Positions 7,151 to 63,543 are shown, counted from the stretch's first letter. The stretch: 64,000 bases of DNA from an uncultured virus (IMG/VR IMGVR_UViG_3300042349_000638) (IMGVR_UViG_3300042349_000638); one strand, 5' to 3'. A program made the numbers and translations. The notes: a model not told the origin generated them from the sequence alone.

Positions 7151-7193
7151 TGATACTCCTGAGGTTCACTGTCCCCTCGTAACTTCTTATTAT

Positions 7194-7568
7194 TTATGCA
7201 GTTGGAGGTTCTGGAAAAACTACTTCTTCAGGTGAAGAAAAAGTAGTTGTAATATCTCTCAATTCTTGACGATATGTTTTCCATGATGTTGGAATGTTAG
7301 TTCCACATTCTTTTGCTTTTAATACAACCCAGTCGCAATTTGTAAGAAGTTGATCTCTCTCTTTTCTAACTTCTGCCCATGCAAGATCTAAATCTTCAAC
7401 TGGAGCAACAAATTCGCCATTAATATATGACCACCCCATTCCAACACCCGCAACTGTTGATGTTTCAACATCGACCCAGTTTGGATAATTCTTTGCATGT
7501 GATGGTTCAGCAGCTGTCATATTGACAACTACTTCGTTTTCTACAATTGCATAAATTTTGATTGCCAT
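7194..7568 (-). CDS. Tail fibre assembly chaperone-like protein
   Basis: C-terminal W-x-x-VR-x-ERD-x-LL-x-x-x-DW...W-x-x-YRQ-x-LRDIT motif of phage tail-assembly chaperones. Lies directly downstream of a fibre gene. Confidence 0.75.
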   Translation of the reverse strand: MAIKIYAIVENEVVVNMTAAEPSHAKNYPNWVDVETSTVAGVGMGWSYINGEFVAPVEDLDLAWAEVRKERDQLLTNCDWVVLKAKECGTNIPTSWKTYRQELRDITTTFSSPEEVVFPEPPTA

Positions 7569-7604
7569 TTTTTTAATGCTCCTTTTTAGATTTATATAAA
7601 ATTA

Positions 7605-9398: not shown

Positions 9399-9436
9399 AG
9401 TATTGTGTAGTAATCTGTTTTTTTACTCTTATGGTT

Positions 9437-9444
9437 TATTTATA
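9437..9444 (-). promoter_or_regulatory. T4-type late promoter
   Basis: Exact TATAAATA on the minus strand, ~40 nt upstream of the 9398 start. Similar (A/C)TAAATA boxes precede many structural genes (755, 4353, 7191, 14697, 20122, 26206, 34273, 51937, 62097, 63166). Confidence 0.75.
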
Positions 9445-9461
9445 GTAGAATAACAAAAGAA

Positions 9462-46803: not shown

Positions 46804-49800
46804 TTATGCTTGACTTTCCTTCCAAGATAATCTTGCTGAAATAGACATTGGGGTATTAACAGTAATACCAGTAGTGTTTAGTGGCGCAGCAGCAATTGTA
46901 AGAACATCTGGACCATTTGGATAAACACCATCTCCACCAAGAATACAATTTCCTAAAGAAAGCAGCGATGAAATATCAGCAGTAAAAGCATTTGGAGTTC
47001 TTCTTCCAGTCGAATCTGGAGGGTTTCCAGTTGCTCTGAATGAAAATACTTGAGTTCCTCCACTAACAATATCAAATGAGTTATGAGAAATGACTTGACT
47101 TAGACTTGGAATTCCTTGACCTTGCCAAGTAACACTATCAACTTGACCATTTAAGATTAGACGAATTTCAACGTCATGTGTTGTTAACACTCCCAGAGAA
47201 TCAAGTGCAAGTTGCATTCTATTAATAATGTCTCTCTCTCCCAATAATCCCGTAATTCCACCATCTACAGAAGGTGCAAGTCTAAGTGAGATTAATGGAA
47301 TGACATCAGGAACTGGGATTACACCTCCAAAAGTATGACTAATATTAGATGCAGTTTGGTTTGCAATAAAGTTTGTAGATGCAGTTGGTCCAGACGGTGC
47401 GGAACTAAAGAAGAAATCGACGTATGCTTGTCCCCCTCCCGCAGAAATTATACGATAAACATATGCAGTTCCTTTTGCTGCAATTGCAGTACTAGTAATT
47501 TCTGTACCAAAAGAAACGTTTCCTATACTTGCAAATCCACTAGCGTCAGTCAAGAATCTGTGTATGTATCTTTCACCAAATCCTGTAACATTTGTTGGCG
47601 TTATGGCATATGCAAATGAAGATCTAAATGTATGAGTTCCCGTTCCTGCTGAAGTAAAATCAATATAAGCATTTGCTTGTGCATTCACAAGTGTAGTTGC
47701 AAGTCTAAAGGTATTACCATCTCTTCTTACGACATAATAATAATTTGCACTTGTAAGTCCGCCAATTACAGTTCCTCCAGTATTAATATACTGAACTAAT
47801 GCACCAGTACTAAGTCCATGATTGTTTATTGTTACATAATCATTTCCTGGACCAAAAAATACGTTTGAAGTATTTCTTGCAGTAAATGTTGTAATTCCAG
47901 TAGAAGTAGTACCATCGGCACGTACATAGGTATAATTTCCTGCTGTTCCAATACCAGTTGCTGTAGATCCAGAGAATGTCAAAAATGGAGCAGAGGCTGT
48001 AAACAGATAAGCATCATCATCTTCAAATTTACCGTCCATCTGTACGGTTGTTCCCCAGTGAGCAAGTGATGGTGCAAAGACTGGAGTTCCAACATTCAAA
48101 ATCTCATACCTTGCAGGAAGGTTACCAGATCTCATAAATGCTTCATTTTTTTTGTTATTGTGCTTATATTGATGTACGTAAATAACTTCACCTTCTTGAT
48201 CTTTAAATCCAAAACGTATTTTTCCAGCGCCATACCAAGAATAATCCATGTATGCCATCTGTATTCTAGTTACATCAAGAACATAACCAGTTTCTCCAGT
48301 TCCATCGCAAGGATCAATAGACCAATTTATTTGTGCCGTTTTAGTATCAACTGTCTTAGATGTAATAACATTGCTATTCGTTGTTCCTCTGTATGCTGGT
48401 TGAACATACAATGTAGTATTATTTGGAATATTAACTATTTTATAACTTTGACCACGTATAACGATTCGGTCTCCAACTTCCAGTTGTTGTAAAAATCTTG
48501 TGCCAGATCCAATTATTTCATTTGAATTATAAGTTACACTAATTGTCCCCCCTAACTGACCTGTACTATCTCTTCTAACGGCATAAAGTTGGTCTCCATC
48601 ATATTCATAGAACATTCCATTTTGGAAATCATACATTCCAGCTCTAAGTTTAGATCCTCCCCAACCTTGTACGACCAATTGAGGGAATCCCCCAACAATT
48701 GATTGTGAAGGAGCGGTATCCATATAGTACTCAAAAGTATTTGAGTCAATAACAGACTTTACAATAAATTGCCCATTATAAGGATTTGGACCATTTGTAA
48801 CTTCAGCATCTCTAATAGTAATACTTTGTGATGTAGTCAATCCATGTGGATAACGTGTTACTGCAGTTGCTGTTGTACTAATACCAGAAATAGTTGAAAT
48901 ATCAAGAGGAGGATTAAAGTTAATAGCGAACTGCGACGCCAAACCTTTACCTGATTGATAACGGAAATATCTACGAGTTTGTCTTACAATTTGAGAATCT
49001 GCATTAAATCCAGCATTTATTTCAACTCCACCATCAAAAGGTCTATGTACACTAAATGAATTAGACTTCACATAAATTGAAGTTGGCTTTAAGAAATATG
49101 TATTACTAACTGAAGTAGATGGGAGAGTACCATTGACTTGTATCTTAGTATCACTAAGAACACCATAAACTGTTCCTTCAAAGACAGTTGTACTACTGAC
49201 TCCTACAACAATTGGATCTCCAGATTTGAATGATCGATTAAATTTAGTATCAAATCCCTCAACAAGATCAGAATCTGCAGTAATTCTAATTGTACCAACA
49301 CCAATATTTTCTCCATTTAGATTTGAAGAAGTTAAAGTATGTTGTGTACCAGATCCAGTTGAACTAAAAGTAATTGCAACTCCAGCAGTAGCATTTGCAA
49401 AAGAACTAGCGAGTCTAAGACCATCTTTTGCAATTCTGATAACATAATAAGATGATCCACTAGTAAGTCCGCCTATATTGCTTCCTCCTCCATTATTATA
49501 AAGTACTTGAGTGCCAGTTGAAAGTCTATGCGAAGGAATTTCAATAAAATTATCACCACCGACATATAATTTTGACTGAGGGTTAAATGTCGCCTCAATC
49601 TTTGGTACTGTTATATTGGAGTTTGTAAATCTAAATCCCGTTGTTCCAAGACCAACAGATGATACTGAATAAACTCCATCAAATGCGCCTGTGGTGGTAG
49701 TAAAAAATGTTTGAATTCCAACTCCAGCACTGGTGATATTAATAGCTGCTGATCCTTGTGTCTCAGATAATCTAAAACGATCATCAGTTACATCTCGCGT

Positions 49801-51684
49801 ATAATATGTTAGTCCCCCAGTCAATCCTCCAATCGTTGTACCAGATCCCACTTCATAAACAACTTCAAGATTATCACTTAAACCATGTCCTGCTATTAAA
49901 ATAGTATTTTTAATTGGATTATCAACTATTTTTTGGAATGAATGGGCAGCTCCCACTGCACCGTATCCAGTAATATCAATTCTACTACCAACTGTAGATG
50001 TTTTTAATCCAAATTGATTTGTATCTGCAACATCAATATAATACTGAGTATTGTTTGTTAGATTACTTATAGTTGTTCCTCCACCGTTATTATATGTCCA
50101 TAGTTCATCAGTAATAAATCCATGATTAGCAATGTAAAAAGTATTTCTTGAACTATTTGCTATAAGAGGAACAAAAACATTTTCGGATACTGTAGATGTA
50201 GTTGCACTAAAGTTAATTCTGGTTCCACCGCCAGATGCTAATGATAAAGTACGTGAAGTTGTACCTGCTGCTTGGAAATAATAATAAGTTACAACAGTTG
50301 ACTCATCATATAACTTTGCTGGATTTTGCGTAGTTACTAAAGTTTGCATGATATTGGTTCCAGAAGTAGGACCAACGCATAGCAAAGGTGTGTTTATATC
50401 AGTAACACTTGTATCCTCATTCCAGTTCACAGCATCTGATGTGGTATTAGTCATACTAAGGGCAGTATAACCTCTGTAGAATCCCAAAATTCCAGTTCCA
50501 GTAGCTGCAGTAATGCTGACTGCAGCACCTCCAGATGTATCTGATAATGAAAAACTATTCGTTGAGGCACTAACAATATAATAACGGTTATTTGCCGTTA
50601 GTCCAGTTGGAGCAGTGCTATTGGGAGCTACAATAAAAAGAACAACTTGCCCATTAGTAAATCCATGAGAATTGATGTTGATTGCATTAGTAGCAACATC
50701 ATCTCCACCTCTAGCAAACTTGGTGCTTAATGTACTGGTATAATCCCAAATATCTGTTTTGCGTATTCCCGTACCATTGTTTGAATTATATTGATTTGGT
50801 TCAAATGTGTTAGTTGTGACAATTGTATCAGCAACTTCAACACTTGATGCGTTAAATTCAAGAGATTGGGTTCCTAGTGTATCAACGACATAAAATTCTG
50901 TCCCAGAAGTAAATCCATGAGGATAAGGAGTTGTAACTGCAATAGTTGAAGGTGTTGCACCATCAGTAGTTACAATATCATATGCGATATCAGACCCAGT
51001 ATAAAATTTTCCAGGAACTAAGTAAGTATATGCTCCACTAATTGTTCCCGTAGAATTTGCAGTGTTTCTTGCAGAAAATGTAAATATATCAGTACCAGAA
51101 ACAGACTCAACAATATAACTACCATCTAAATTTGATTGGTTAAGTCCTCTGACATCAAAAGGAATTCCTACAATAAGTCCATGATCTATACAAGTAACTG
51201 TTAGAATTTTACTTCCAGAAGTTGATTTTATATAAGTTAAGTTTAAAGCAATATCTCCAGTACTGGAATAAAATCCAGGAATATTATTTACTAACTCTAG
51301 GGTTTCCCATTTTGTTGACTGAAGACCATATTCAAAGTCCGTATCAATAAGAGTTTGAGCTTCAGATATTCTAAATTTTGATACAGGGTCAGTATAAGTT
51401 GGAGATGGTCTAAATCTTACAGAGTCCTCTTCAATTAAGATTTGAAGGGAATCATTAGTGCTCATTGCCGAGCAATCAGCTGATAAAACAACAGTTGTTA
51501 ATTCAGTATCATTATCAAAAGTTACAGATATTGCTGTCAAATTAGGATCAGCAAAATTATAAATTATCTTATTACTTGTAACGTTAGTAATAAGAAGTAA
51601 TCTTCTTCTATGAATATTTCCTTCAATCGAAACAGTATTTGTAGATGGTGTAAAAGTGTAACGATGTAAAAGTGCTTTTGCCAT
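46804..51684 (-). CDS. Giant virion structural protein (paralogue of 9462-14660)
   Basis: 1626 aa with the same conserved blocks as the 1732-aa protein. Repeated HG(L/F)...Y...I-x-GLT...YYV modules. Confidence 0.7.
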   Translation of the reverse strand: MAKALLHRYTFTPSTNTVSIEGNIHRRRLLLITNVTSNKIIYNFADPNLTAISVTFDNDTELTTVVLSADCSAMSTNDSLQILIEEDSVRFRPSPTYTDPVSKFRISEAQTLIDTDFEYGLQSTKWETLELVNNIPGFYSSTGDIALNLTYIKSTSGSKILTVTCIDHGLIVGIPFDVRGLNQSNLDGSYIVESVSGTDIFTFSARNTANSTGTISGAYTYLVPGKFYTGSDIAYDIVTTDGATPSTIAVTTPYPHGFTSGTEFYVVDTLGTQSLEFNASSVEVADTIVTTNTFEPNQYNSNNGTGIRKTDIWDYTSTLSTKFARGGDDVATNAININSHGFTNGQVVLFIVAPNSTAPTGLTANNRYYIVSASTNSFSLSDTSGGAAVSITAATGTGILGFYRGYTALSMTNTTSDAVNWNEDTSVTDINTPLLCVGPTSGTNIMQTLVTTQNPAKLYDESTVVTYYYFQAAGTTSRTLSLASGGGTRINFSATTSTVSENVFVPLIANSSRNTFYIANHGFITDELWTYNNGGGTTISNLTNNTQYYIDVADTNQFGLKTSTVGSRIDITGYGAVGAAHSFQKIVDNPIKNTILIAGHGLSDNLEVVYEVGSGTTIGGLTGGLTYYTRDVTDDRFRLSETQGSAAINITSAGVGIQTFFTTTTGAFDGVYSVSSVGLGTTGFRFTNSNITVPKIEATFNPQSKLYVGGDNFIEIPSHRLSTGTQVLYNNGGGSNIGGLTSGSSYYVIRIAKDGLRLASSFANATAGVAITFSSTGSGTQHTLTSSNLNGENIGVGTIRITADSDLVEGFDTKFNRSFKSGDPIVVGVSSTTVFEGTVYGVLSDTKIQVNGTLPSTSVSNTYFLKPTSIYVKSNSFSVHRPFDGGVEINAGFNADSQIVRQTRRYFRYQSGKGLASQFAINFNPPLDISTISGISTTATAVTRYPHGLTTSQSITIRDAEVTNGPNPYNGQFIVKSVIDSNTFEYYMDTAPSQSIVGGFPQLVVQGWGGSKLRAGMYDFQNGMFYEYDGDQLYAVRRDSTGQLGGTISVTYNSNEIIGSGTRFLQQLEVGDRIVIRGQSYKIVNIPNNTTLYVQPAYRGTTNSNVITSKTVDTKTAQINWSIDPCDGTGETGYVLDVTRIQMAYMDYSWYGAGKIRFGFKDQEGEVIYVHQYKHNNKKNEAFMRSGNLPARYEILNVGTPVFAPSLAHWGTTVQMDGKFEDDDAYLFTASAPFLTFSGSTATGIGTAGNYTYVRADGTTSTGITTFTARNTSNVFFGPGNDYVTINNHGLSTGALVQYINTGGTVIGGLTSANYYYVVRRDGNTFRLATTLVNAQANAYIDFTSAGTGTHTFRSSFAYAITPTNVTGFGERYIHRFLTDASGFASIGNVSFGTEITSTAIAAKGTAYVYRIISAGGGQAYVDFFFSSAPSGPTASTNFIANQTASNISHTFGGVIPVPDVIPLISLRLAPSVDGGITGLLGERDIINRMQLALDSLGVLTTHDVEIRLILNGQVDSVTWQGQGIPSLSQVISHNSFDIVSGGTQVFSFRATGNPPDSTGRRTPNAFTADISSLLSLGNCILGGDGVYPNGPDVLTIAAAPLNTTGITVNTPMSISARLSWKESQA

Positions 51685-51724
51685 TTTTTAGATTTACCTC
51701 TATTTCTTAAAATCTACAAATTTA

Positions 51725-51913
51725 TCAACCACCCAAACCAATTGATAAAGCAACAGCAAATGACTCAGTTGCTAATGACGTTCCAGATACGGTGGTTCCA
51801 TCATGAGTCACTACAGTTTTCTTATCAGTATCATAAGTTATTTCACCTTCAGCACCAGTGAAAGAAGCATGTTGTGTACTAGATCCTCTTCTTATCTGTA
51901 CTTGCTTAGTCAT
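51725..51913 (-). CDS. Minimal Mtd_N-domain protein (putative adaptor)
   Basis: VQIRRG...H-x-x-FTGAEGEIT-x-DTDK...HDG-x-T-x-x-G, followed only by a hydrophobic tail FAVALSIGLGG. Confidence 0.7.
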   Translation of the reverse strand: MTKQVQIRRGSSTQHASFTGAEGEITYDTDKKTVVTHDGTTVSGTSLATESFAVALSIGLGG

Positions 51914-51973
51914 TATACTTTGGGACTACTAAAACTTATTTAGGCTTTGAATCAATAGCAATTAGTCTTGATT

Positions 51974-53737
51974 TTATCCAAAGTTTCCAATTGTTGTACC
52001 AGTACCAACGCATGTAACCTTCATATAAGAGTTTGATAATGCTGTTATTGTTGCAGTTGAACTAAAAGCAAGTAAATCTAATCTTGAGTTTGATGCTGGT
52101 TGAACTAAACCTTTAATTGTGATTCCGTGAGATGTGCCAGCAGTAAGAGATGCTGAAGTAAATATAGTTACTGGACTTACTGTTCCACCAACAACAATTG
52201 CGTTTGAAGCAGTATTGGCCTGCAACGTAGCAAACGTAAAGTTACCTGTTGACAATGATGCTTGAACCGTAACTGTGCCAGCGTTCGTAACTTTTGTAAC
52301 AAAAACAACTGCTTCTATTTCATAGATGTACCCGCCCAGTAAAGCGGGTCTATTTGTTGCACCAAAAAATGATGTTCCAGGACTTGTCGTGTCATTAATT
52401 GATAAATTATCTGGTCTGCGAATAAACTGAATCTCAGGAACTAATGCTCTTCGGTTAGCATTTGTCGTATCATCATTTGTATGATATAACAGAACTCTAT
52501 CATATTCAAAAGCACCAGATTCTGGCGTAGTAAGTAGAGTTGTAGATGCAACTGATATTTTTAATGGAGCTGAGGATGCTGCAGCAGATCCCGTTCCTTC
52601 AATATGCAATTCTGCAGTTGGATTTGTAACACTAATTCCAATATTACCACCTAAAGGTTGTAAAACTATGTTATATGTTGCTGTTGATGGAACCGTAAAT
52701 CCAGATTGTATCCACTGTGCAAAATTATTACTAGAACCATATTGACCTATTGAAAGATAATTTCCACCTTGTCCCGATAAAATAGTATGGGCATTTACGG
52801 TAATATCACTGATTGATGGATTTCCTTGTGCAACTGAATTTCCTAACCTTACCACTCCAGTTACGTCAAGTTTATATGATGGATTAGTGACACCAACTCC
52901 AAGATTACCAGAAACATAAGCACCACCAGTAACTTGAAGTGGTTGTGATACGGTTCCAGTTAAAACGTCAGATCCAATTCCAACTTCACCTGTTGAATGG
53001 ACTACAACTCTATTGGTTAGATTTGTAGATGTAGCAATACCTTCAAAAGTTCCAGAAGTTGCTGCTGTATAAGTATCAATTCTAACTTGACCACCAGCAA
53101 GTCTTATTCTATCCCACCCATTGGAAGCATCTGCATCATTTCCTTTAAATAGAAGAAGTTCCGATCTTTCTGTTCCAGTGGTCCAAACTCTTTCACCAAT
53201 ATAGGTGTGATTATAAGAACCAGGACCATCACCAGTTGTTCCATAAAATGCAATATAATTTGAAGTTGTTGAAACTCCAAGTCTCAAGTTACCATCAACT
53301 TGAAGTCTTTCTCCAGGATTTGTGGATCCTATTCCAAGATTACCAGAAACATAAGCACCACCAGTAACTTGAAGTGGTTGTGATACGGTTCCAGTTGAAG
53401 TTCCAGAACCAATAAAAACTGGTCCATTTGTAAATGTAGAGATTCCAGTTACATTAATTAATGCAAATGTAGAGACTCCAGTTACATTAATTCTTGATAC
53501 GTTCGGTAACGTTGTAACACCACTAACTATTAAAGTCGTTGCTTCAATATCTTTATTTGTAATTCTTTGAGTTGCTGCAACTCCCACAAGTTCATGACCA
53601 CCTTTAGTGGATCCATCATGAACTCTTAGAGTTTTATTTGTAGTGTCTACAGTTACTTCTGCTAAAGCGCCAGTAAATCCAACACCAGAAGTATGATCAG
53701 AGGTAGATCCTCTTCTAAATTGTACTTCTTTGACCAT
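51974..53737 (-). CDS. Tail fibre/receptor-binding protein with Mtd_N domain
   Basis: N-terminal VQFRRG...FTGALAEVTVDT...HDGSTKGG, fibre GNLGIG repeats, distinct beta-rich C-terminal domain. Confidence 0.75.
   Translation of the reverse strand: MVKEVQFRRGSTSDHTSGVGFTGALAEVTVDTTNKTLRVHDGSTKGGHELVGVAATQRITNKDIEATTLIVSGVTTLPNVSRINVTGVSTFALINVTGISTFTNGPVFIGSGTSTGTVSQPLQVTGGAYVSGNLGIGSTNPGERLQVDGNLRLGVSTTSNYIAFYGTTGDGPGSYNHTYIGERVWTTGTERSELLLFKGNDADASNGWDRIRLAGGQVRIDTYTAATSGTFEGIATSTNLTNRVVVHSTGEVGIGSDVLTGTVSQPLQVTGGAYVSGNLGVGVTNPSYKLDVTGVVRLGNSVAQGNPSISDITVNAHTILSGQGGNYLSIGQYGSSNNFAQWIQSGFTVPSTATYNIVLQPLGGNIGISVTNPTAELHIEGTGSAAASSAPLKISVASTTLLTTPESGAFEYDRVLLYHTNDDTTNANRRALVPEIQFIRRPDNLSINDTTSPGTSFFGATNRPALLGGYIYEIEAVVFVTKVTNAGTVTVQASLSTGNFTFATLQANTASNAIVVGGTVSPVTIFTSASLTAGTSHGITIKGLVQPASNSRLDLLAFSSTATITALSNSYMKVTCVGTGTTIGNFG
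52898..53396. repeat. Exact 64-nt direct repeat (52898-52961 and 53333-53396)
   Basis: TCCAAGATTACCAGAAACATAAGCACCACCAGTAACTTGAAGTGGTTGTGATACGGTTCCAGTT occurs twice and encodes TGTVSQPLQVTGGAYVSGNLG. Confidence 0.9.
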
Positions 53738-53818
53738 TTATATTCTCCAATTCATTATATTCAATAGACCTTGTTAAAATTTTTATCTATCAAAATATAC
53801 TTTAAGTTATTTATTTTA

Positions 53819-54664
53819 CTATACATCTGCAGTATTGGTTGAAGGATACAATCTACTTGGTCCCCATATAATTCTCACTGCTCCCTGAGCTCCAGCACCT
53901 GCCGTAGAAGCATCAGATCCACCGCCACCACCACCATAAGCGCCGCCATTAGATAAAGTTGGTTTTGTACCGCCAGATCCAGCGTTACCACCCTCTGTTG
54001 ATGTTGCGGTTGCTGCGCCACTGGTTCCTTCTCCAAGAATTCCTACGCCGCCACCACCGTAACCCTGCGCTGTACCGCCACCGCCGCCGCCACCTGCTGC
54101 TCCTCCCGTTCCAGCGCCGCCCTGAGCATTGTTTGTTGCTCCATTTCCACCATTTCCAGAATATCCTCCAGCGCCTCCACCTGCACCATTATATGAAGTA
54201 CTGTTGTTACCACCAGTTCCACCATCACCACCACCGACTGTTCCACTTACTGGCCCAGCGCCAACCGTTGTTCCAGTTCCTCCAGCTCCACCAGTCGTCT
54301 GAGTACCGCCGCCGCCACCATTTGCCTGAACTAAAACAGTACCAGATCTTAAAATATTAGAAAGGACGCCTGCGATACCACTAGCAGTTCCAGCAGCTGC
54401 AGTACCACCAGATCCAACATTTATAGTTAAAGTTTCGCCAGGTGTAACTGCAAGGTTCACAATATAACGTAAACCGCCGCCGCCACCACCAGCTACCTCA
54501 GTACCAGATGTTGCGTTTCTAGCTCCTCCTCCTCCACCGCCAACACAAACTGCAGATATTACAAATACATCTTGAGGAACAACAAAACTAGTTTGTCCAG
54601 GAGTAGTAAATAACTGCTGTCCAGCAGGCATTCTTTGATGAAAAAATGATTGTTGTATTGTCAT
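53819..54664 (-). CDS. Glycine-rich adhesin-like protein
   Basis: QQLFTTPG...CVGGGGGG...GAQGAVRIIWG with polyglycine tracts. Starts 1 nt after the upstream fibre stop. Confidence 0.7.
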   Translation of the reverse strand: MTIQQSFFHQRMPAGQQLFTTPGQTSFVVPQDVFVISAVCVGGGGGGARNATSGTEVAGGGGGGLRYIVNLAVTPGETLTINVGSGGTAAAGTASGIAGVLSNILRSGTVLVQANGGGGGTQTTGGAGGTGTTVGAGPVSGTVGGGDGGTGGNNSTSYNGAGGGAGGYSGNGGNGATNNAQGGAGTGGAAGGGGGGGTAQGYGGGGVGILGEGTSGAATATSTEGGNAGSGGTKPTLSNGGAYGGGGGGSDASTAGAGAQGAVRIIWGPSRLYPSTNTADV

Positions 54665-54665
54665 A

Positions 54666-55748
54666 TTAAGTTAAACCAGCTCCAGAAATTATAAATACGG
54701 GATTGGCACCTCCAGTGACACAAAGAAGTGTGCAGATACCATATTGAGCAAGCGTTCTAGTGCCCGTAGTTGCTGTAGCAGCAAGTCTTAAAGTTACGTT
54801 TGTACCTTGAGTTATTGTTTGAGATGATCCAGAGTCGTTATATACAGTTACAACATCTCCAACAGAAAAAATACTAGCATTAACTGTAACTCCTCCAGTT
54901 GTTATATCAATATGTTTTCCAGCATCTGATGCTGCCAGTATATAAGCACCTGTTTGAGCATTTTGAGGAATTGCTCTTACATCACCCTTACTATCATTAA
55001 CAGTTGATGAAGTAGTAACTCCAACAACGGTTAGATTTCTTGCAGTAGAGAATCCAGTAACAGCTAGAGTAGTAGTAGTAACAATACCTGTAGCGGATAT
55101 ACCACCAGTAAAGTTTCCATTACCAGCGACGTCGAGTTTTGATATCGGATTTGTTGTTCCTACACCAACATTACCTCCCAAATATTTTAATGTTAAAACA
55201 TCTAGTGTAGCGCCATCATTTCTAGATCTATAAAATAGATCACTAGATCCTGTAGATACTGATCCGAAAGCCCAATCAAATAGTCCATTTGTTTGAAAGT
55301 CGAATGCATTTGTTCCTGAAGCATCAGGTCTATTTACACGAACTCTTGCTGTTTGTCCCGATACTTGAATATGATTAGTAGCACCATTAATGCTTAAGAG
55401 ATGATCTGGATTTGTGGTTCCTATGCCAAGATTACCACTTATATAACCACCACCAACAACTTGAAAATCTTGATCTGCAGTACCTGTTGAAGTTCCAGTA
55501 CCAATTAAAACTGGACCAGTAGTAAAAGTTGATACGCCACTAACGGTTACATTTGTCGCAGAAATTAAAGTTTTATTTGTAATTGCCTGCGTTGCTGCAA
55601 TACCTACAAGTTCTTTTCCGCCAACAGTTGTTCCATCATGAACCACTGCAATATCTTTATCAGTATTAATCGTTATTTCCCCTTCGGCACCTGTAAAAGC
55701 GGCATGTTCTGCAGTAGTACCTCTCCTAAATTTTACACCCTTTACCAT
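54666..55748 (-). CDS. Tail fibre with Mtd_N domain
   Basis: N-terminal VKFRRGTTAEHAAFTGAEGEIT...HDGTTVGG. C-terminal domain shared with 1828-4332. Confidence 0.75.
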   Translation of the reverse strand: MVKGVKFRRGTTAEHAAFTGAEGEITINTDKDIAVVHDGTTVGGKELVGIAATQAITNKTLISATNVTVSGVSTFTTGPVLIGTGTSTGTADQDFQVVGGGYISGNLGIGTTNPDHLLSINGATNHIQVSGQTARVRVNRPDASGTNAFDFQTNGLFDWAFGSVSTGSSDLFYRSRNDGATLDVLTLKYLGGNVGVGTTNPISKLDVAGNGNFTGGISATGIVTTTTLAVTGFSTARNLTVVGVTTSSTVNDSKGDVRAIPQNAQTGAYILAASDAGKHIDITTGGVTVNASIFSVGDVVTVYNDSGSSQTITQGTNVTLRLAATATTGTRTLAQYGICTLLCVTGGANPVFIISGAGLT

Positions 55749-55792
55749 TAATCCAGTACCAGATTACTTTTAGTTATTTATTATATGATTTA

Positions 55793-58700
55793 TTATATGA
55801 TAGTTACAAAGACGTATGGTTGCCTATAAACAATGTATGTACCAACTCCAACTCCATTTATTTCAATTAATCCACCACCAATCTCAGTTGTAGGAGTATA
55901 AGATTCTCGTCCATTACCAACGATTGCAATTGTACCAGTTGCTTTATAGTTTGGTCTAAACTTATCAATAGCAGTTTCATTAATTGAAACTATTCCAGAT
56001 CCAGTTATATTTGGAACATAGACTTGTATGTTCTGAGTTATTCCTCCAGAGAATAAAATAGATCCAGACCCAATTTCTCTAAAGGTATTCTTCTCTACCT
56101 TAGATCCAGAGAACTCAAAGAGAACTGTATTTTCTGGTGGATTTGCACCAAAGACCTCGGCAGATCCTCCAATTGCAGAGAATGATCCAGAACCAATTTC
56201 TGTAGCTGGAGTAAAGGATTGTGTAGAAGATCCAGAGAATGTGGCTGATCCAGATCCACTATAAATGAATACTGGTCTATTAAGAGAATCTCCGTTGACC
56301 TGGACAGATCCAGATCCAATTTCCCTAAAGGTACTCTTCTCTACCTTAGTACCAGAAACCTCAAAGAGAACTGTATTTTCTGGTGGATTTGCACCTATGG
56401 ATTCTACAGAACCAACAATTGCAGAGAATGATCCAGAACCAAGTTCTCTAAAGGTATTCTTCTCTACCTTAGTACCAGATACTTGGAATAGAACTGTAGA
56501 ATCTGGAGGATTGATCAGTGTAGATTCTGCTGCTCCAGTAATTGCAGAAAGTGTTCCAGATCCTTTATATGAAGGTAATGATTTTTGGATTGCATTACCT
56601 GTTACTGATAATGTGCCAGTTCCTTGATGAGCATAAGTTGCCTTCAGATTACTATAAGATCCACTAATTTCAAAGAGAACTGTAGAATCTGGTGGATTGA
56701 CTAAGGTAGACTCTGCAGATCCAGAGAACGCAGAGAATGATCCAGAACCAATTTCTGTTGTAGGAATGAACGATTGTGGAGCAGATCCAGAGAATGTGGC
56801 CGATCCCTCTCCAACATGTATCGCTAGTGCTTCAAGAGCAATTATTGCCTCTCCAGAGAACTCAGCGGATCCAGAACCAATTTCGCTAAATGTATTCTTC
56901 TCTACCTTAGATCCAGAGAACTCAAAGAGAACTGTGGAATCTGGAGGATTAACACCTGTTGCTTCCGCTGATCCAGAGAACGCAGAGAATGATCCAGAAC
57001 CAATTTCTGCTGTAGGAATAAATGCCTGAGGAGCAGATCCAGAGAATGTGGATGATCCTCTGCCAGCAAATCCAGGATTCTTTCTTGCCGTTCCTTCTCC
57101 AGAGAACTCAGCAGATCCAGAACCAATTTCGCTAAATGTATTCTTCTCTACCTTAGATCCAGAGAACTCAAAGAGAACTGTGGAATCTGGAGGATTAACA
57201 CCTGTTGCTTCCGCTGATCCTCCAATTGTAGAGAATGATCCAGAACCAATTTCTGTAGCTGGAGTAAAGGATTGTGTAGAAGATCCAGAGAATGTGGATG
57301 ATCCAGATCCAATTTCAACAAATCTATTCTGAAGATTTGTAGCACTTCCAGAAATTGTAACAAATCCAGTACCAATTTCTCTAAAGGTATTCTTCTCTAC
57401 CTTAGTACCAGAAACATTAAAGAGAAGTGTAGAGTCTGGTGGATTAACCAGTGCAGATTCTGCTGCACCTGTAATTGCAGAGAGAGTACCAGAACCAAGT
57501 TCTCTAAAGGAATTCTTCTCTACCTTAGTACCAGAGAACTCAGCGGATCCAGAACCAACCCATTCTGGAGTACTCAGAATAATTGTAGTACCACTAAATG
57601 TAGCAGATCCAGAACCAATTTCTCTAAAGGTATTCTTTTCTACCTTAGTACCAGAAACATTAAAGAGAACTGTAGAATCTGGTGGATTGACACCTATTGC
57701 TTCCGCTGATCCAGAGAACGCAGAGAATGATCCAGAACCAATTTCTGTAGCTGGAGTAAAGGATTGTGGAGCAGATCCAGAGAATGTGACTGATCCAGAT
57801 CCAGTTATGTATGGAACATATACTTGAACATCCTGAGTAATAGATCCAGATACCTGGATAGTTCCATAAGGATATGTTGTCTCATTAAATGGAGAGCTTA
57901 AAGTTCCATAATCTTCATAACCGACTTGATCACTGAGTAATCCATAATCATCGTAATCTTGTACAACGCTTATAATGCCATGATCATCATATCCATCAAA
58001 TATAAATATCGCTCTCTCATTATAAGAATAAGTGTTCTTCTCTACCTTAGTACCAGAGAACTCAAAGAGAACTGTAGAATCTGGTGGATTGACTAATCTA
58101 GATTCTGCTGATCCACTAATTGCAGAGAAAGATCCAGATCCAATTTCAGTAGATGGTATGAATGATTGTGAAGCAGATCCAGAGAAGGTAAGGACAACTG
58201 TAGAATCTGGTGGGTTGACTCCTGTTTCTTCAGCAGCACCTGTGATTGCAGAGAAAGATCCAGAACCAATTTCCCTTAAGGAACTCTTCTCTACCTTAGT
58301 TCCAGAGAAGGTAAGGACAACTGTAGAATCTGGAGGATTGACGCCAACAACCTCAGCAGCACCTGTAATTGCAGAGAATAATCCAGATCCAAGTTCCCTA
58401 AAGGTATTTTTCTCTACCTTAGTTCCAGAGAAATCTCCAGATCCCTCTGCTTTATGAACATAAAGTAATTTTGGTTCATATAATGCAGATCCAGATATTT
58501 CAACAGTACCAAAAGGATATGCATCTGCAGTATTAAAAATATAACGATAATCTTCAACTCCTGTTGTCAATTCAGAATCAATAATAAATCCATAATCAAC
58601 AAATACTGTCGCAGTAGATCCTATACTTCCATAGTCATCTGGAGTTTGTGCAAGTATTATTGATCTCTCATTATAAGAATAGGTATTCTTCTCTACTTTA

Positions 58701-60580
58701 GTACCAGAGAACTCAAAGAGAACTGTAGAATCTGGAGGATTGACGCCAGCAACCTCAGCAGCACCTGTGATTGCAGAGAATGATCCAGATCCAAGTTCTC
58801 TAAAGGTATTTTTCTCTACCTTAGTTCCAGAGAATATAGCAAGACCTGAAGTTGGAGGATTGACTCCAGTTTCTTCTGCAGCACCTGTGATTGCAGAGAA
58901 AGATCCAGATCCAAGTTCTCTAAAGGTATTCTTTTCTACCTTAGTACCAGAGAATATAGCAAGACCTGAAGTTGGAGGATTGACTCCTGTTTCTTCAGCG
59001 GCACCTGTGATTGCAGAGAGAGTACCAGATCCAAGTTCTCTAAAGGTATTTTTCTCTACCTTAGTACCAGAGAACTCAGCGGAGCCCTCTGCTTTATGAA
59101 TAAATTGAGTTAAGAATTCTGTAACTGCAGATCCAGATACCTGGATAGTTCCATAAGGATATGTTGTTTCATTAAATGGAGGATTTACAGATCCATAATC
59201 CTCATAAACGACTTGATCCGTAAGTAATCCATAATCATCATAATCTTGAATAACACTTATAACACCATGATCATCGTATCCATCAAATATAAATATTGCT
59301 CTTTCATTATAAGAATAGGTATTCTTCTCTACTTTAGTACCAGAGAACTCAAAGAGAACTGTAGAATCTGGTGGGTTTGCTCCAACAACTTCAGCAGCAC
59401 CTGTAATTGCAGAGAATGATCCAGAACCAATTTCCCTAAAGGAACTCTTCTCTACCTTAGTACCAAAGATTTCAAATAGTAAATTTTGATCTGGAGGATT
59501 GACTCCAGTTTCTTCCGCTGATCCAGAGAAGGTAGAGAAAGATCCAGATCCAAGTTCTCTAAAGGTATTCTTTTCTACCTTAGTACCAGAGAATATAGCA
59601 AGACCTGAAGTTGGAGGATTGACACCAGCAACCTCAGCAGCACCTGTAATTGCAGAGAATGATCCAGAACCAATTTCCCTAAAGGTATTCTTTTCAACTT
59701 TGATTCCAGAAAACTCAGCAGATCCAGAACCTACATGGATAAATTGAGTTAAGAATTCTGTAACTGCAGATCCAGATACCTGGATAGTTCCATAAGGATA
59801 GGTTGTCTCATTAAATGGAGAGCTTAAAGTTCCATAGTCTTCATAAACAACTTGATCAGTAAGTAAACCATAATCATCATAATCTTGTACAACGTTTATG
59901 AAACCATAATCATCGTATCCATCGAAGACAAATATCGCTCTCTCATTATAAGAATAAGTGTTCTTCTCTACTTTAGTACCAGAGAACTCAAAGAGAACTG
60001 TAGAATCTGGTGGGTTTGCTCCAACAACTTCTGCAGATCCAGAGAACGCAGAGAATGATCCAGATCCAATTTCCCTAAAGGAACTCTTCTCTACCTTAGT
60101 ACCAGAAAAATCTCCAGATCCCTCTGCTTTATGAATATAAAGTAATTTTGGTTCATATAATGCAGATCCAGAGAACTCAATAGTTCCGTAAGGATATGCA
60201 TCTCCAGTATAGTAAATATAACGATAGTCTAAAGCTTCAGTCTGATTATCTGCAATAGATCCATAATCAATAAAGGATGTTACAGTAGATCCTATGCTTC
60301 CATAGTCATCTGGCGACTGTGAAAGAATTATAGATCTTTCATTATAAGAATATGTCCGTTCTTCTAACGCATTATCAAGATCAAATATGAATTTGCGCTG
60401 ATCTTGATAATCTAAAAGTTCTTGTTGAGGTGTAAGTATAGATCCATAATCTTCTCGTTCTGTATCGGGAGAAGATACTAGACCTAAATTTACAGATTCT
60501 GTTGAAGATTGTGTTACTAAACCCCAATCTTCTTGAATATAATATTCAGGATATGAAAACGTCTTCAGGTTAAATGTCAT
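55793..60580 (-). CDS. Large repetitive virion protein (putative fibre scaffold)
   Basis: 1595 aa built from ~20/40-aa repeats (FSGTKVEKNTFRE(I/L)GSG; SA(I/F)xG(A/S)AE...NPP) interrupted by six acidic D-Y-G clusters. The DNA repeats are near-identical, with a 120-nt period at 58800-59070. Confidence 0.75.
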   Translation of the reverse strand: MTFNLKTFSYPEYYIQEDWGLVTQSSTESVNLGLVSSPDTEREDYGSILTPQQELLDYQDQRKFIFDLDNALEERTYSYNERSIILSQSPDDYGSIGSTVTSFIDYGSIADNQTEALDYRYIYYTGDAYPYGTIEFSGSALYEPKLLYIHKAEGSGDFSGTKVEKSSFREIGSGSFSAFSGSAEVVGANPPDSTVLFEFSGTKVEKNTYSYNERAIFVFDGYDDYGFINVVQDYDDYGLLTDQVVYEDYGTLSSPFNETTYPYGTIQVSGSAVTEFLTQFIHVGSGSAEFSGIKVEKNTFREIGSGSFSAITGAAEVAGVNPPTSGLAIFSGTKVEKNTFRELGSGSFSTFSGSAEETGVNPPDQNLLFEIFGTKVEKSSFREIGSGSFSAITGAAEVVGANPPDSTVLFEFSGTKVEKNTYSYNERAIFIFDGYDDHGVISVIQDYDDYGLLTDQVVYEDYGSVNPPFNETTYPYGTIQVSGSAVTEFLTQFIHKAEGSAEFSGTKVEKNTFRELGSGTLSAITGAAEETGVNPPTSGLAIFSGTKVEKNTFRELGSGSFSAITGAAEETGVNPPTSGLAIFSGTKVEKNTFRELGSGSFSAITGAAEVAGVNPPDSTVLFEFSGTKVEKNTYSYNERSIILAQTPDDYGSIGSTATVFVDYGFIIDSELTTGVEDYRYIFNTADAYPFGTVEISGSALYEPKLLYVHKAEGSGDFSGTKVEKNTFRELGSGLFSAITGAAEVVGVNPPDSTVVLTFSGTKVEKSSLREIGSGSFSAITGAAEETGVNPPDSTVVLTFSGSASQSFIPSTEIGSGSFSAISGSAESRLVNPPDSTVLFEFSGTKVEKNTYSYNERAIFIFDGYDDHGIISVVQDYDDYGLLSDQVGYEDYGTLSSPFNETTYPYGTIQVSGSITQDVQVYVPYITGSGSVTFSGSAPQSFTPATEIGSGSFSAFSGSAEAIGVNPPDSTVLFNVSGTKVEKNTFREIGSGSATFSGTTIILSTPEWVGSGSAEFSGTKVEKNSFRELGSGTLSAITGAAESALVNPPDSTLLFNVSGTKVEKNTFREIGTGFVTISGSATNLQNRFVEIGSGSSTFSGSSTQSFTPATEIGSGSFSTIGGSAEATGVNPPDSTVLFEFSGSKVEKNTFSEIGSGSAEFSGEGTARKNPGFAGRGSSTFSGSAPQAFIPTAEIGSGSFSAFSGSAEATGVNPPDSTVLFEFSGSKVEKNTFSEIGSGSAEFSGEAIIALEALAIHVGEGSATFSGSAPQSFIPTTEIGSGSFSAFSGSAESTLVNPPDSTVLFEISGSYSNLKATYAHQGTGTLSVTGNAIQKSLPSYKGSGTLSAITGAAESTLINPPDSTVLFQVSGTKVEKNTFRELGSGSFSAIVGSVESIGANPPENTVLFEVSGTKVEKSTFREIGSGSVQVNGDSLNRPVFIYSGSGSATFSGSSTQSFTPATEIGSGSFSAIGGSAEVFGANPPENTVLFEFSGSKVEKNTFREIGSGSILFSGGITQNIQVYVPNITGSGIVSINETAIDKFRPNYKATGTIAIVGNGRESYTPTTEIGGGLIEINGVGVGTYIVYRQPYVFVTII

Positions 60581-60930
60581 CGTACTTTACCTGAAGCTAG
60601 ATATGGAGATACTATTCTTTCAAGTCCATTTTCTATTTCAAATACTGTACCAAATCCAATCCAGGTCAAAATAATCCCAAAGAAGACTATAGAATCTTCA
60701 TTGAGATCTTCTATGCGAATAAAAATTGTAGTAAAGTTGTTTTTAGATGATCCCTTTATCTTAAAAGATTCTGTTTTTCCAGTAGAACAATACGAAAAAG
60801 AATTTGGAAGAGGTTTATCTTCCTCTTCATCTTCTAAATCATTATCTTTTTTTACGGGAATACTGCCACAATCTATGATTTCTGTTGGCAAATCAACTAT
60901 ACTGCCATAATCATCGGGAAAATTTTGCAC
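60577..60930 (-). CDS. Hypothetical protein with DYG-like motifs
   Basis: DDYGSIV...IDCGSI. GTG start; its stop overlaps the start of the 1595-aa gene. Confidence 0.55.
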   Translation of the reverse strand: MQNFPDDYGSIVDLPTEIIDCGSIPVKKDNDLEDEEEDKPLPNSFSYCSTGKTESFKIKGSSKNNFTTIFIRIEDLNEDSIVFFGIILTWIGFGTVFEIENGLERIVSPYLASGKVR

Positions 60931-61009: not shown

Positions 61010-62056
61010 TCACTCAAGAGTTACGTTAAGAGTAACTTTAATTTCATCACCAGGGTTCTGAATTCTGTAAGGACCATTTGTAAATCTTTCAGCGTAGAAT
61101 ACACTATTCAGAAGAGTTGCAGTTCCAGTACCATGAATAGCAGGAGTTGTAAAGAACTCTCTAAGTCCATTTACGCTATGAACAGTATAGGTAGATGAAG
61201 TAATACCCCAGTTTGCGCCAGTGGTTGTTCCTGACTGATTACCTTGAATAAAGATTACATCTCCTGCAGCCAATCCATGGTTTACAGATGTGCTGACCTT
61301 TGAGAAGTTAAATCTAACAGTTGATCCAGTAGCAACCTGAATGTTAGCAAGTAGAGGACTATCAAGATAAACATATCCAGTCGCTCTGTCGACTCCAACA
61401 ACCTGTGCGGTAGTAGCAATACCTACAGTGTTACCAGTAATTGCAAGGTGAGTCATTGCCATTCCGACAGTAACTTCATCAACACCACCACTATTGATTT
61501 GAACGTAACGGTTTCCAATAACTCCAGTTACATCAGTTTTAGTAATAGCTGTTCCAGTACCAACAGTTGCGGCATCTTGAACACCAAGTAGAGTAACAGG
61601 CATATTATTTGCTCTTGCAAGATAATATCCGTAGATGTAATCTGCGTTTGTATTCAGAGCAACGTCACCACTAAAGGTAAATGTTTGCTCTGGATATGTT
61701 GCAGTCACTGTAGTTCCACCAGTACCAGTTCTTCTAAGAACCCAGCGTGATCCATTTAATAGGATACCATAATTTGATGTATAAGACTGATCACTTCTAT
61801 TGTTTATGCAACTTGGATATCCAGTTACAGGTGCGGTTCCATAACCACATGAAGCAGCAGCTGCACCACCAGCATATGGTTCATAATATTTGGTTCTGCT
61901 TGGTTCATCACCATCAGCAGGTGTAGTATTACTAGAATATAGTTTAAGAATTAAATTTCTTGGAGAAGTCTCAGAAAGGGTTGGCACATGATTATTTGCG
62001 CCAATCAGATATCTAAGTGATTCTACTTCACCAATAGCTGGTACTAACAGTGCCAT
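61010..62056 (-). CDS. Virion structural protein
   Basis: MALLVP-x-x-GE...LILKLY-x-x-N-x-TP...TYPEQTFTF...YAERF-x-x-GPY...GDEIKVTLNVTLE. Late promoter at 62097-62103. Confidence 0.65.
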   Translation of the reverse strand: MALLVPAIGEVESLRYLIGANNHVPTLSETSPRNLILKLYSSNTTPADGDEPSRTKYYEPYAGGAAAASCGYGTAPVTGYPSCINNRSDQSYTSNYGILLNGSRWVLRRTGTGGTTVTATYPEQTFTFSGDVALNTNADYIYGYYLARANNMPVTLLGVQDAATVGTGTAITKTDVTGVIGNRYVQINSGGVDEVTVGMAMTHLAITGNTVGIATTAQVVGVDRATGYVYLDSPLLANIQVATGSTVRFNFSKVSTSVNHGLAAGDVIFIQGNQSGTTTGANWGITSSTYTVHSVNGLREFFTTPAIHGTGTATLLNSVFYAERFTNGPYRIQNPGDEIKVTLNVTLE

Positions 62057-62102: not shown

Positions 62103-62807
62103 TCATAATTTCAATTTAAAGGATATTAGGAATTGCGTAATATCCACAGAATAATTTACCACAAATTTTATAATATCCCCAGATAATATTGTAGTATTCC
62201 ATCCAGTTAACGTATCATCAAATCCCTTATTTGTATTAGATATTGTAGGATAATTGCCAGAAACAATCGACGTAAAGGTAGGATAACTGGAATAATTTGA
62301 TTTTTGAATATCAAGTTGAAGATTTCCAGGAGTTTCTGCAAATATCTTCCAAGAATCAATTATACCATTCACATCAACTGTTAATAATCCTTTTTCACCT
62401 GGCGTCATATTTTGATTTCCGCTATCAACAATAAAATTGACAGTTCTAGTCAGATCAGCAGTTGTTACTAAAGCAATTACAAATATATCATCCGTTACAA
62501 GTGGAGGATTTGTAAAAATGATAGAACTTCCAGAAACAACAAAATCTTCTGAAGGTTCTAAGAAATAATTATTTTTCCCAACTAATAGTTGCTGATCATT
62601 GATTGGAGTATATGGTGTTCCATCATCATATAAAGAAAATGTCCTACCAATGCCATTAAATCCTGAAGAAATATCGTCAAGAATAATATTATTATACTGT
62701 ATTGATTTTGACGGAACTTCAAAGTTAACATCAACTCCATATTTTGGAGGAGTTGATACCGTAACTCTTTTCCTATTATGAGAAATGGTTACATCGTATT
62801 TTGTCAT
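62103..62807 (-). CDS. Putative virion structural protein
   Basis: LDDISSGFNG...F-x-L module plus a C-terminal beta domain. In a late-promoter operon. Confidence 0.55.
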   Translation of the reverse strand: MTKYDVTISHNRKRVTVSTPPKYGVDVNFEVPSKSIQYNNIILDDISSGFNGIGRTFSLYDDGTPYTPINDQQLLVGKNNYFLEPSEDFVVSGSSIIFTNPPLVTDDIFVIALVTTADLTRTVNFIVDSGNQNMTPGEKGLLTVDVNGIIDSWKIFAETPGNLQLDIQKSNYSSYPTFTSIVSGNYPTISNTNKGFDDTLTGWNTTILSGDIIKFVVNYSVDITQFLISFKLKL

Positions 62808-63139
62808 AGAGTAACTCCTGGATTAACTAAGATATTACCCTGTATTACTCTAGTTTTAAATCCAGTACCAGATGTCAATAAAACGTCATACATATGCCTA
62901 CCTTCTTTTAAGGTCTCAGTCACAGAACTTGCCATTGATACTGTAATTTCACCAGCAATTCTATCCACAAAAGTAACATCAAATGGATAGGAAGTTGTTG
63001 ATCTTGGATGTTTTTTTAAAAAACATTCAGCAGTATAATCAGTCAAGTTTAAAGGAGTACCATCATCATTTCTGATGGTAAAATCAACGTCAAAGTCTGA
63101 ACCTTGCTCAAGCACTAGATTTATATTAATTGCAGACAT
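62804..63139 (-). CDS. Putative virion structural protein (Ig-like/BppU-like)
   Basis: NLVLEQGSDF...PLNLTDYT...EGRHMYDVLLT...RVIQG-x-x-x-VNPGVT. Confidence 0.6.
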   Translation of the reverse strand: MSAININLVLEQGSDFDVDFTIRNDDGTPLNLTDYTAECFLKKHPRSTTSYPFDVTFVDRIAGEITVSMASSVTETLKEGRHMYDVLLTSGTGFKTRVIQGNILVNPGVTL

Positions 63140-63171: not shown

Positions 63172-63543
63172 TTAAGTAGCATTGTTCCTTCTGCTGCCAT
63201 AAGAATACAAATTTTTTGGTTTTTCTGGTTCCATCCATTCTAATATTTTTTGATATCTACCTAGATCAAAAAAATACTGAGAGTTGTACCATACTTCCCA
63301 TGAAGTGTGTCCTTTGTCATGGTTGCAAGTTCGGCAACAACAGACAACATTTTTAGTTTCATCTGGACCTCCTTTTGATTGAGGAACAACATGGTCCAGA
63401 GTTAAATTTTCAGTGGAACCACAATATGCACATTCGTGATTCCACCTTTCTTTTATACTTCGCCTCCACATTCGTTTTGCTTCTGATGAACTTGTAGTTT
63501 GAAGATTGTACAAGTACTGTCTCGGAGAAGCGAAGAGTTCCAT
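63172..63543 (-). CDS. HNH endonuclease (McrA-like)
   Basis: CAYCG...LTLDHVVPQSKGG...NVVCCCRTCNHDKG. Confidence 0.9.
   Translation of the reverse strand: MELFASPRQYLYNLQTTSSSEAKRMWRRSIKERWNHECAYCGSTENLTLDHVVPQSKGGPDETKNVVCCCRTCNHDKGHTSWEVWYNSQYFFDLGRYQKILEWMEPEKPKNLYSYGSRRNNAT

Follow-up and report, generated by a model that had tools for sequence, protein, structure and literature searches.

How proteins with an Mtd_N head are fastened to the virion is described as presumed only, both for Bordetella phage Mtd and for other members of the group, in the excerpts of the literature available. The question is raised in an unusual form by a 64,000-nucleotide (nt) stretch of DNA from an uncultured virus (IMG/VR IMGVR_UViG_3300042349_000638), which is here called the window. 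Within it, all genes of the region under study being on the minus strand, a giant repeat protein of 1595 amino acids (aa; protein B, 55793..60580) with clusters of D-Y-G-like motifs is encoded just upstream of proteins that start with Mtd_N heads. The initial annotation of this locus had interpreted B as a docking platform for Mtd_N trimers. The analysis reported here indicates that the Mtd_N trimer probably has the D-Y-G motif as its ligand, the giant probably acting as a multivalent docking platform.

Protein B was found to consist of a rod of approximately 20-aa GSG..FSG units, often paired as 40-41-aa repeats, into which clusters of motifs are set as insertions of about 90 aa that start with ..EKNTYSYNER and end with YP[YF]GT..SGS. 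Six such clusters are present, each holding three D-Y-G-like motifs spaced 12-15 aa apart, and these triplet modules are limited to the first 930 residues, no cluster lying beyond residue 890. Cluster 1, at the N-terminus (60365..60580, motifs at 60443-60529), contains EDWGLV, VNLGLV and EDYGSI at residues 18, 31 and 44. Two modules are of type A, namely module 2 (60122..60391, motifs at 60221-60307), with DDYGSI, IDYGSI and LDYRYI at residues 92, 105 and 118, and module 5 (58445..58720, motifs at 58544-58636), with DDYGSI, VDYGFI and EDYRYI at residues 649, 662 and 677. The remaining three are of type B: module 3 (59726..59995, motifs at 59831-59911), with DDYGFI, DDYGLL and EDYGTL at residues 224, 236 and 248; module 4 (59087..59356, motifs at 59192-59272), with DDHGVI, DDYGLL and EDYGSV at residues 437, 449 and 461; and module 6 (57800..58069, motifs at 57905-57985), with DDHGII, DDYGLL and EDYGTL at residues 866, 878 and 890. 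Identity is 71% between modules 2 and 5, 87% between modules 3 and 4 and 78% between modules 3 and 6, as against 39-48% between module 3 and modules 2 and 5. The 20/40-aa rod, the six clusters in these places and their recurrence in types (2 like 5; 3, 4 and 6 alike) had all been described in the initial annotation and are borne out, as are the two further motifs that it had noted in the 117-aa open reading frame (ORF) immediately upstream (A, 60577..60930), which are DDYGSI at residue 7 and IDCGSI at residue 20. Residues 15-116 of A match positions 46-150 of phrog_11522 (E = 7.5e-4), the family matched by B itself in 8 stretches (E = 1.7e-101), and in related loci small ORFs equivalent to A, each with one module match, precede the giant. 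By its sequence, A corresponds to a split-off N-terminal piece of the giant.

Of 5000 residue shuffles of B, 4981 contained no triplet and 19 contained one, against six in the real protein; as this test leaves out of account that the modules are duplicates of one another, conservation across homologues provides the stronger argument. Of 7998 candidates scored in a search with B, 286 were homologues at E ≤ 0.001, and modules were counted in the 120 of these that were listed. A profile built from five window modules matched 108 of the 120, with 1-23 modules each and 622 instances altogether, the consensus being TYsYN.SS....eDYGsI.......eDYGlI.......DYG.I....yPFG..ISG.A, in which D, Y and G are each conserved at 73-92% at all three sites. 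Of the 369 full-length modules, 138 contained three strict motifs, 142 contained two, 77 one, 11 none and a single module four; the modal spacing of motifs in these modules was 13 residues, and the density of strict motifs was 22.5 per 1000 aa within modules versus 2.7 elsewhere. With 254 matches at E ≤ 0.001 in a profile search of 1.84 billion cluster representatives, the giant family is modest in size, and it is phage-borne wherever its context is known. A strict motif was present within the first 60 residues of 21 of the 33 complete giants of related loci, and in others it is carried by the small upstream ORF. Almost every complete giant ends in a tail of the ...(P)R.YV.II type, which in B reads ...YVFVTII (55796..55816) and is a candidate alternative attachment site.

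Searches for known folds gave little. The PDB sequence search with B returned no match, the ESM Atlas look-alikes of residues 180-520 reached a best score of 0.82 with no families, and an NCBIfam scan of proteins A to G of the block contained nothing relevant. A Pfam DUF1866 match on B (28 bits), which had no significant stretch, and an NCBIfam chi-subunit match were both taken as spurious. AlphaFold2 monomer prediction of module 3 with its flanks (57-row alignment) gave a mean confidence (predicted local distance difference test, pLDDT) of 55 and a predicted template modelling score of 0.15 with no secondary structure, which is too poor for a judgement of the fold, and the prediction for the last 300 residues of B (35 rows) had a pLDDT of 41, too poor for use.

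The putative partners are C (360 aa, 54666..55748; phrog_9648 tail protein), E (587 aa, 51974..53737) and F (62 aa, 51725..51913). All three exceed the gathering cut-off of 26.3 bits for the Pfam family Mtd_N (PF18454), every match being N-terminal: C with 46.3 bits (E = 4.1e-12, residues 5-41), E with 47.5 bits (E = 1.7e-12, residues 5-44) and F with the best score, 58.8 bits (E = 4.8e-16, residues 5-41). A profile of 26 heads matched the solved structures of Bordetella phage Mtd (1yu0, 1yu4 and 2iou; residues 1-56) with E values from 4e-22, for 1yu0, to 8e-21; the only structures matched at a credible E value were those of Mtd itself, listed as Mtd alone. The shared N-terminal domain of three downstream genes and its resemblance to the Mtd N-terminus, as proposed in the initial annotation, are therefore well founded, while its wording that the three genes lie directly downstream and carry unrelated payloads has to be amended. 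C, E and F are indeed present, but a gene for a 281-aa glycine-rich protein (D, 53819..54664; PF21722 Gly_rich_2, E = 1.1e-6; phrog_4474) sits between C and E. Likewise, the distal parts of C and E differ, but their heads and shafts can be aligned over about 290 positions (36% identity, E = 4e-39), and F is essentially a head with a short hydrophobic tail. Pfam gave no lectin domain in C, E or F, and between 51700 and 55760 no repeat pair of the template/variable type was seen, the direct repeats there being the shared heads and shafts (65-77% identity); the C-type lectin tip and the variable/template repeats that mark Mtd proper were accordingly not found for these proteins.

Being little more than a head, F may be a connector, and small Mtd_N-only proteins are encoded in other loci also. 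It resembles 112-123-aa Mtd_N-only proteins ending in ..S[IV]G[IL]VFGV, and in locus L124 such a protein (5001-5369) stands directly before a 1354-aa homologue of G (5410-9471), as F stands before G in the window; F might connect G with a D-Y-G site. In C, residues 208-231 also match the local Mtd_N profile weakly, besides the N-terminal match, which is the only one that Pfam gives. Glycine-rich proteins (with PF21722 in D) adjoin Mtd_N-headed genes in unrelated loci too (L119, 4848-8179; L161, 6302-7222), in up to 3 tandem copies.

The association of the two types of gene was surveyed using the conserved 348-aa neighbour upstream of A (61010..62056; phrog_10467, E = 4.7e-101) as the anchor, for which 80 IMG/VR loci were fetched of 558 relatives; when B by itself, or the set of five window modules, served as the query for related loci, no more than 3-4 were obtained. 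A complete ORF follows the anchor in 35 loci, and in 32 of these an Mtd_N ORF begins 36-56 nt beyond it, the corresponding distance between B and C in the window being 45 nt. The three exceptions are uninformative, as L055 has a different arrangement of small ORFs without a giant, the contig of L068 apparently stops just past the giant, and the giant of L074 is frameshifted, its true end lying 53 nt from the end of the contig. An Mtd_N gene is therefore located directly downstream in every informative giant locus, and the survey of adjacency suggested by the initial annotation has a positive outcome. The break in L074 (3409-7693) leaves the giant-type C-terminal tail in a second ORF and may be a sequencing error or real. 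In the whole genomes of Synechococcus phages S-CAM1 and S-CAM3, a single Mtd_N is encoded, immediately after the giant. In the phage collection, the anchor gene was present in 17 records, representing S-CAM1, S-CAM3, S-SSM7, S-SSM6a, Sf-FS3 and S-SCSM2R together with one fragment; all 6 of these cyanomyovirus species also carry Mtd_N, and the giant was read in five of them, S-SSM6a being the sixth. The only other Mtd_N matches from Synechococcus phages or Kyanoviridae were those of the podovirus S-TIP37 and of Pelagibacter phage HTVC008M, a member of the Kyanoviridae. Giant and Mtd_N gene thus form a co-inherited cassette, and adjacency alone is silent on which part of the giant matters.

Evidence bearing on the motif itself was obtained from a set of loci anchored on Mtd_N, comprising 80 from IMG/VR and 3 from genomes (83 in total, with the upstream ORF absent in 2 and the Mtd_N ORF in 1). 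A terminal motif, defined as a match to [DEN][YWFL]G.[IVLM] in the final 8 residues, closes the protein encoded upstream of Mtd_N in 48 of the 80 loci (31 of 58 after removal of redundancy); in 21 of 80 (16 of 58) that protein has the giant-type tail, and in 11 of 80 (11 of 58) it has neither. Among the other non-nested ORFs in the same loci, the terminal motif was present in 6 of 635; one of these six, in L095, in fact abuts an Mtd_N match, and the remaining five are small connectors of 102-103 aa, all from loci with Mtd_N genes. The motif precedes Mtd_N in six of the seven named phage contexts as well, the exception being Sinorhizobium phage Phosso. In BPP-1, the protein encoded upstream of Mtd, Bbp9, ends in ..ADLGGIA; the corresponding ends are ..IDFGTL in gp39 of the T7-like cyanophage S-TIP37, ..VDLGSVA in AGE60397 of HTVC008M, ..DFDFGSI in gp31 of Roseobacter phage CRP-3 and ..VNLGGLA in gp14 of Pseudomonas phage AH02. 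Gene 0052 of Vibrio phage K437b, which is followed by two Mtd_N genes, encodes EDYGFV, EDFGMI and VDRGRL near its C-terminus with a 13-aa period. S-TIP37 gp39 and K437b 0052 match PF03906 (T7 tail-fibre N-domain) and AH02 gp14 matches PF09008 (P22 tailspike head-binding), matches by which all three are identified as virion anchors. Since AH02 gp14 is a PF09008 anchor ending in the motif, AH02 looks like a split tailspike, with anchor and tail in gp14 and head and body in gp15.

The period of the giant's modules also recurs outside the giants, as in-chain doublets or triplets with 13-aa spacing were seen near the C-terminus in L094 (which ends EDWGLV-7-EDWGQV-7-DDWGLVA), in L095 and in K437b 0052, and one group of 117-120-aa proteins ends in ..DYGLITD..(15)..DYGSIA. 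As Mtd_N is common in genomes without giants, the head needs no scaffold. Inspection by eye of the second motif residue (Y, F, W or L) against Mtd_N positions revealed no clear covariation, and a pairing of ..DLGG[IL]A tails with 'RGG...REIT' heads (BPP-1 and AH02) was dropped, being limited to two possibly related phages.

Further tails and heads were noted in the course of this comparison. Bbp9 (L085, BPP-1, 4459-5985) contains two internal motif matches also, YDFGSI at residue 201 and IDYGDL at residue 425, which are of interest given the two Mtd trimers per fibre that are reported in the available excerpts for that phage. A second tail/head pairing was seen in five IMG/VR loci (L105, L133, L167, L120 and L175), in which a protein ending in ..(I/L/V)DGGT[YF] is followed by one starting with M..(V/I)(V/I)Q(I/L)KRS......P....L..GE.A.N, a head that has no Pfam match and looks like a distant cousin of Mtd_N. 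Proteins of 75-120 aa with one head and one or two tails look like pure connectors.

Because motif carriers are confined in the window to A and B, and Mtd_N heads to C, E and F, B is best read as a multivalent docking rod. In the proposed mechanism, B would be a long repetitive fibre or rod protein whose modules, of 75-90 aa, each present three copies of [ED]-D-[YWF]-G-x-[IVL] about 13 residues apart, and the motif would be the peptide by which receptor-binding proteins dock, gripped by their trimeric Mtd_N beta-prism heads. Most phages would have between one and three copies, placed right at the C-terminal end of an adaptor or fibre that is anchored in the virion (the anchor being, among others, a T7 gp17-type N-domain, a head-binding domain of the P22 type or BPP-1 Bbp9), and the gene for the Mtd_N-headed protein would come next; in the window, the motif would be multiplied inside one giant chain, so that B together with A could hang C, E and F along its length for multivalent display. 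Anchor domains of the T7 gp17 and P22 types form homotrimers. A trimeric anchor would thus offer three motif tails, and a chain whose three motifs are spaced by 13 residues could serve one trimer likewise. The observed coupling of motif and head would then reflect direct binding, with internal triplets used besides terminal motifs and three motifs engaged per trimer, an arithmetic of one socket per trimer that is hypothetical, as is the likening of B to a scaffoldin. Overall, a docking peptide for Mtd_N that is multiplied within the giant for multivalent display is considered the best explanation, and it is given about an even chance of being correct. A more far-reaching version is put forward tentatively, as a possibility judged to fall short of an even chance: D-[aromatic/Leu]-G-x-[Ile/Leu/Val] would be a general Mtd_N docking peptide, used in podoviruses, myoviruses and BPP-1, which one cyanophage lineage may have multiplied into in-chain triplets that mimic the three C-terminal tails of a trimeric fibre, so that one giant chain could carry from 6 (here) to more than 20 trimers as a bottle-brush adhesin of a kind not described for phage tails.

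A number of observations weigh against the docking of Mtd_N on the modules. Co-inheritance of the cassette could produce adjacency without the modules being the point of contact, and the number of modules (0-23, or 0-11 in the loci) does not track that of Mtd_N genes, mostly one per locus, so that the correlation for which the initial annotation proposed a survey was not observed. Six clusters and three Mtd_N genes are present in the window, and 11 modules and at least four genes in L022; many loci with 1-9 modules have one visible Mtd_N gene, often of more than 1900 aa and reaching past the locus, as the single gene per locus usually runs off the locus end; and in S-CAM1 and S-CAM3 several clusters are accompanied by a single Mtd_N protein, of 152 aa. 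The complete giant of L021 lacks any strict motif, and yet an Mtd_N gene comes next. The end of the giants is formed not by the motif but by the ...RTYVxII tail, which is conserved in its own right and could be where the joint really lies. Neither type of tail precedes Mtd_N in the 11 remaining loci of the 80, and Phosso has no upstream fibre gene. The variable module number, the absence of strict motifs from L021 and the conservation of the C-terminal tail in nearly all giants, even those with 0-1 modules, would all be accommodated if the D-Y-G modules belonged to the architecture of the giant fibre, for instance as hinges, trimerisation knots or spacers separating segments of the rod, and Mtd_N docked only at one conserved end of the giant, either the ...RTYVxII C-terminus or the N-terminal cluster. 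Joining end to end is moreover usual for fibres made of successive gene products, as in the long tail fibres of T4. An internal role, however, leaves unexplained why unrelated anchors end in this motif, likewise spaced by 13 aa, exactly where an Mtd_N gene follows, and the ...YVxII tail is absent from the non-giant Mtd_N contexts surveyed. A purely structural role for the modules is for these reasons regarded as rather unlikely, if still a serious competitor.

The acidic clusters, rich in aromatic residues, might instead bind metal, Ca2+ or host glycan autonomously, in which case the giant itself would be an adhesin and its link with Mtd_N a matter of the one conserved cassette that they share. 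Pfam, NCBIfam and PDB sequence searches of B gave no Ca-binding or lectin family, and the AlphaFold2 model of the module was unstructured (pLDDT 55), a result too weak to weigh strongly; as terminal motifs on T7-type and P22-type anchors ahead of Mtd_N genes would also be left without explanation, ligand binding by the clusters appears improbable. The terminal motif could also be conserved for reasons at the level of the gene, through translational coupling or as a recombination joint for swaps of receptor-binding protein genes, its likeness to the giant's motif then being coincidental. In 24 of the 30 distinct terminal motif sequences, stop and start are indeed 0-3 nt apart (23 gaps of 0-3 nt and one 3-nt overlap), and 22 of the 30 terminal glycine codons are GGG or GGA, a bias that could partly reflect the ribosome-binding site of the next gene and so also counts against a role for the peptide. 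Against this, third codon positions are free to vary at D, the aromatic residue and G, with GAC/GAT, TAC/TAT/TTC/TTT/TGG and all four glycine codons in use among the 30 sequences, so the terminal motif is conserved at the protein level; furthermore, the motif occurs internally, in triplets distant from start codons and conserved over 622 modules, and the intergenic gap in giant loci is 36-56 nt. A gene-level origin is accordingly considered very improbable. The docking-platform interpretation of the initial annotation is thus supported in part, at the level of comparative genomics, by a coupling of motif and head that extends far beyond the window (48/80 against 6/635), and weakened by a module number that does not follow the number of genes.

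Comparison with known systems starts from BPP-1, for which the excerpts at hand place Mtd at the tail-fibre ends as two trimers per fibre and 12 per phage (PMC2408619), state that it may show as a hexamer on the fibres (PMC3567102) and describe its beta-prism as one that 'presumably attaches' to the fibre protein (PMC10743442). Literature searches revealed no described partner motif for Mtd_N and, among the papers listed, no mention of Bbp9, although an earlier description is possible; nor was any listed paper found joining 'major tropism determinant' with cyanophage, or any cryo-electron microscopy structure of a T4-like cyanophage fibre. With Mtd, proteins C, E and F share the N-terminal domain (PF18454), and the upstream gene bbp9 likewise ends in a variant of the motif. 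BPP-1 differs in being a small podovirus whose single Mtd has a C-type lectin tip and is varied by a retroelement, whereas the window has three heads on different bodies, no template/variable repeat pair in 51700-55760 and the partner motif multiplied inside a 1595-aa chain. The split pairs of anchor and receptor-binding protein (S-TIP37 gp39, K437b 0052 and AH02 gp14) would use the same joint between motif and Mtd_N; they carry 1-3 terminal motifs, unlike B, in which no anchor domain is recognised and the motifs form six clusters inside the chain.

In branched receptor-binding complexes of the CBA120, G7C and K1-5 type, several receptor-binding proteins are joined via T4 gp10-like modular N-terminal attachment domains. 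The window is similar in that one phage would display several receptor-binding proteins through modular N-terminal attachment, but these complexes rely on folded domain-domain contacts, as opposed to the short peptide motif repeated on a giant rod that is proposed here, and no T4 gp10-like attachment domain was found among the Pfam and PHROG matches of A-F. The likeness to a cellulosome suggested by the initial annotation holds as a concept only, that of a long chain with repeated sites for interchangeable partners: cohesin and dockerin families were not found in A-F by Pfam (E ≤ 0.01), and the sites in the window are triplets of motifs spanning about 40 residues whose partner would be a trimer.

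The identical gene order in S-CAM1 and S-CAM3 (Kyanoviridae), where the giant has 2130-2558 aa, identifies the window by sequence comparison as a block of tail-fibre and baseplate genes from a cyanophage of the T4-like (Kyanoviridae-like) kind or from close kin. In order of transcription, a 111-aa LtfC/BppU-like protein (62804-63139) comes first, followed by a 234-aa virion protein (62103-62807; phrog_10330), the 348-aa anchor gene and A to F, after which G, a 1626-aa structural protein (46804-51684; phrog_5838), is encoded. A near-identity DNA search of phage records had as its best result a 2% match to S-SRM01, and the nearest genome record (G001) has no Mtd_N. Beside the fibre block lies a gene for a stand-alone 123-aa HNH nuclease (63172-63543), which matches the HNH regions of IscB/Cas9 models (E = 3.7e-15, far under the model cut-offs). 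Several very large structural proteins have in common a C-terminal ..W.E[ST]QA end (SWKESQA, WIETQA, IESQA, WSEAQA), among them those encoded at 46804-51684 and 9465-14660 of the window and in L124, L131 and L134, and this end is possibly another assembly address.

A five-residue partner motif that recurs in many unrelated phages turns the question of how Mtd_N-headed proteins are attached into a simple binding experiment. If confirmed, the motif would provide a rule for assigning receptor-binding proteins to the fibre genes that hold them in marine and freshwater phages, where such genes are mostly annotated as hypothetical, and it would indicate that a phage can convert a terminal joint into an internal, repeated one and thereby obtain a polyvalent display rod.

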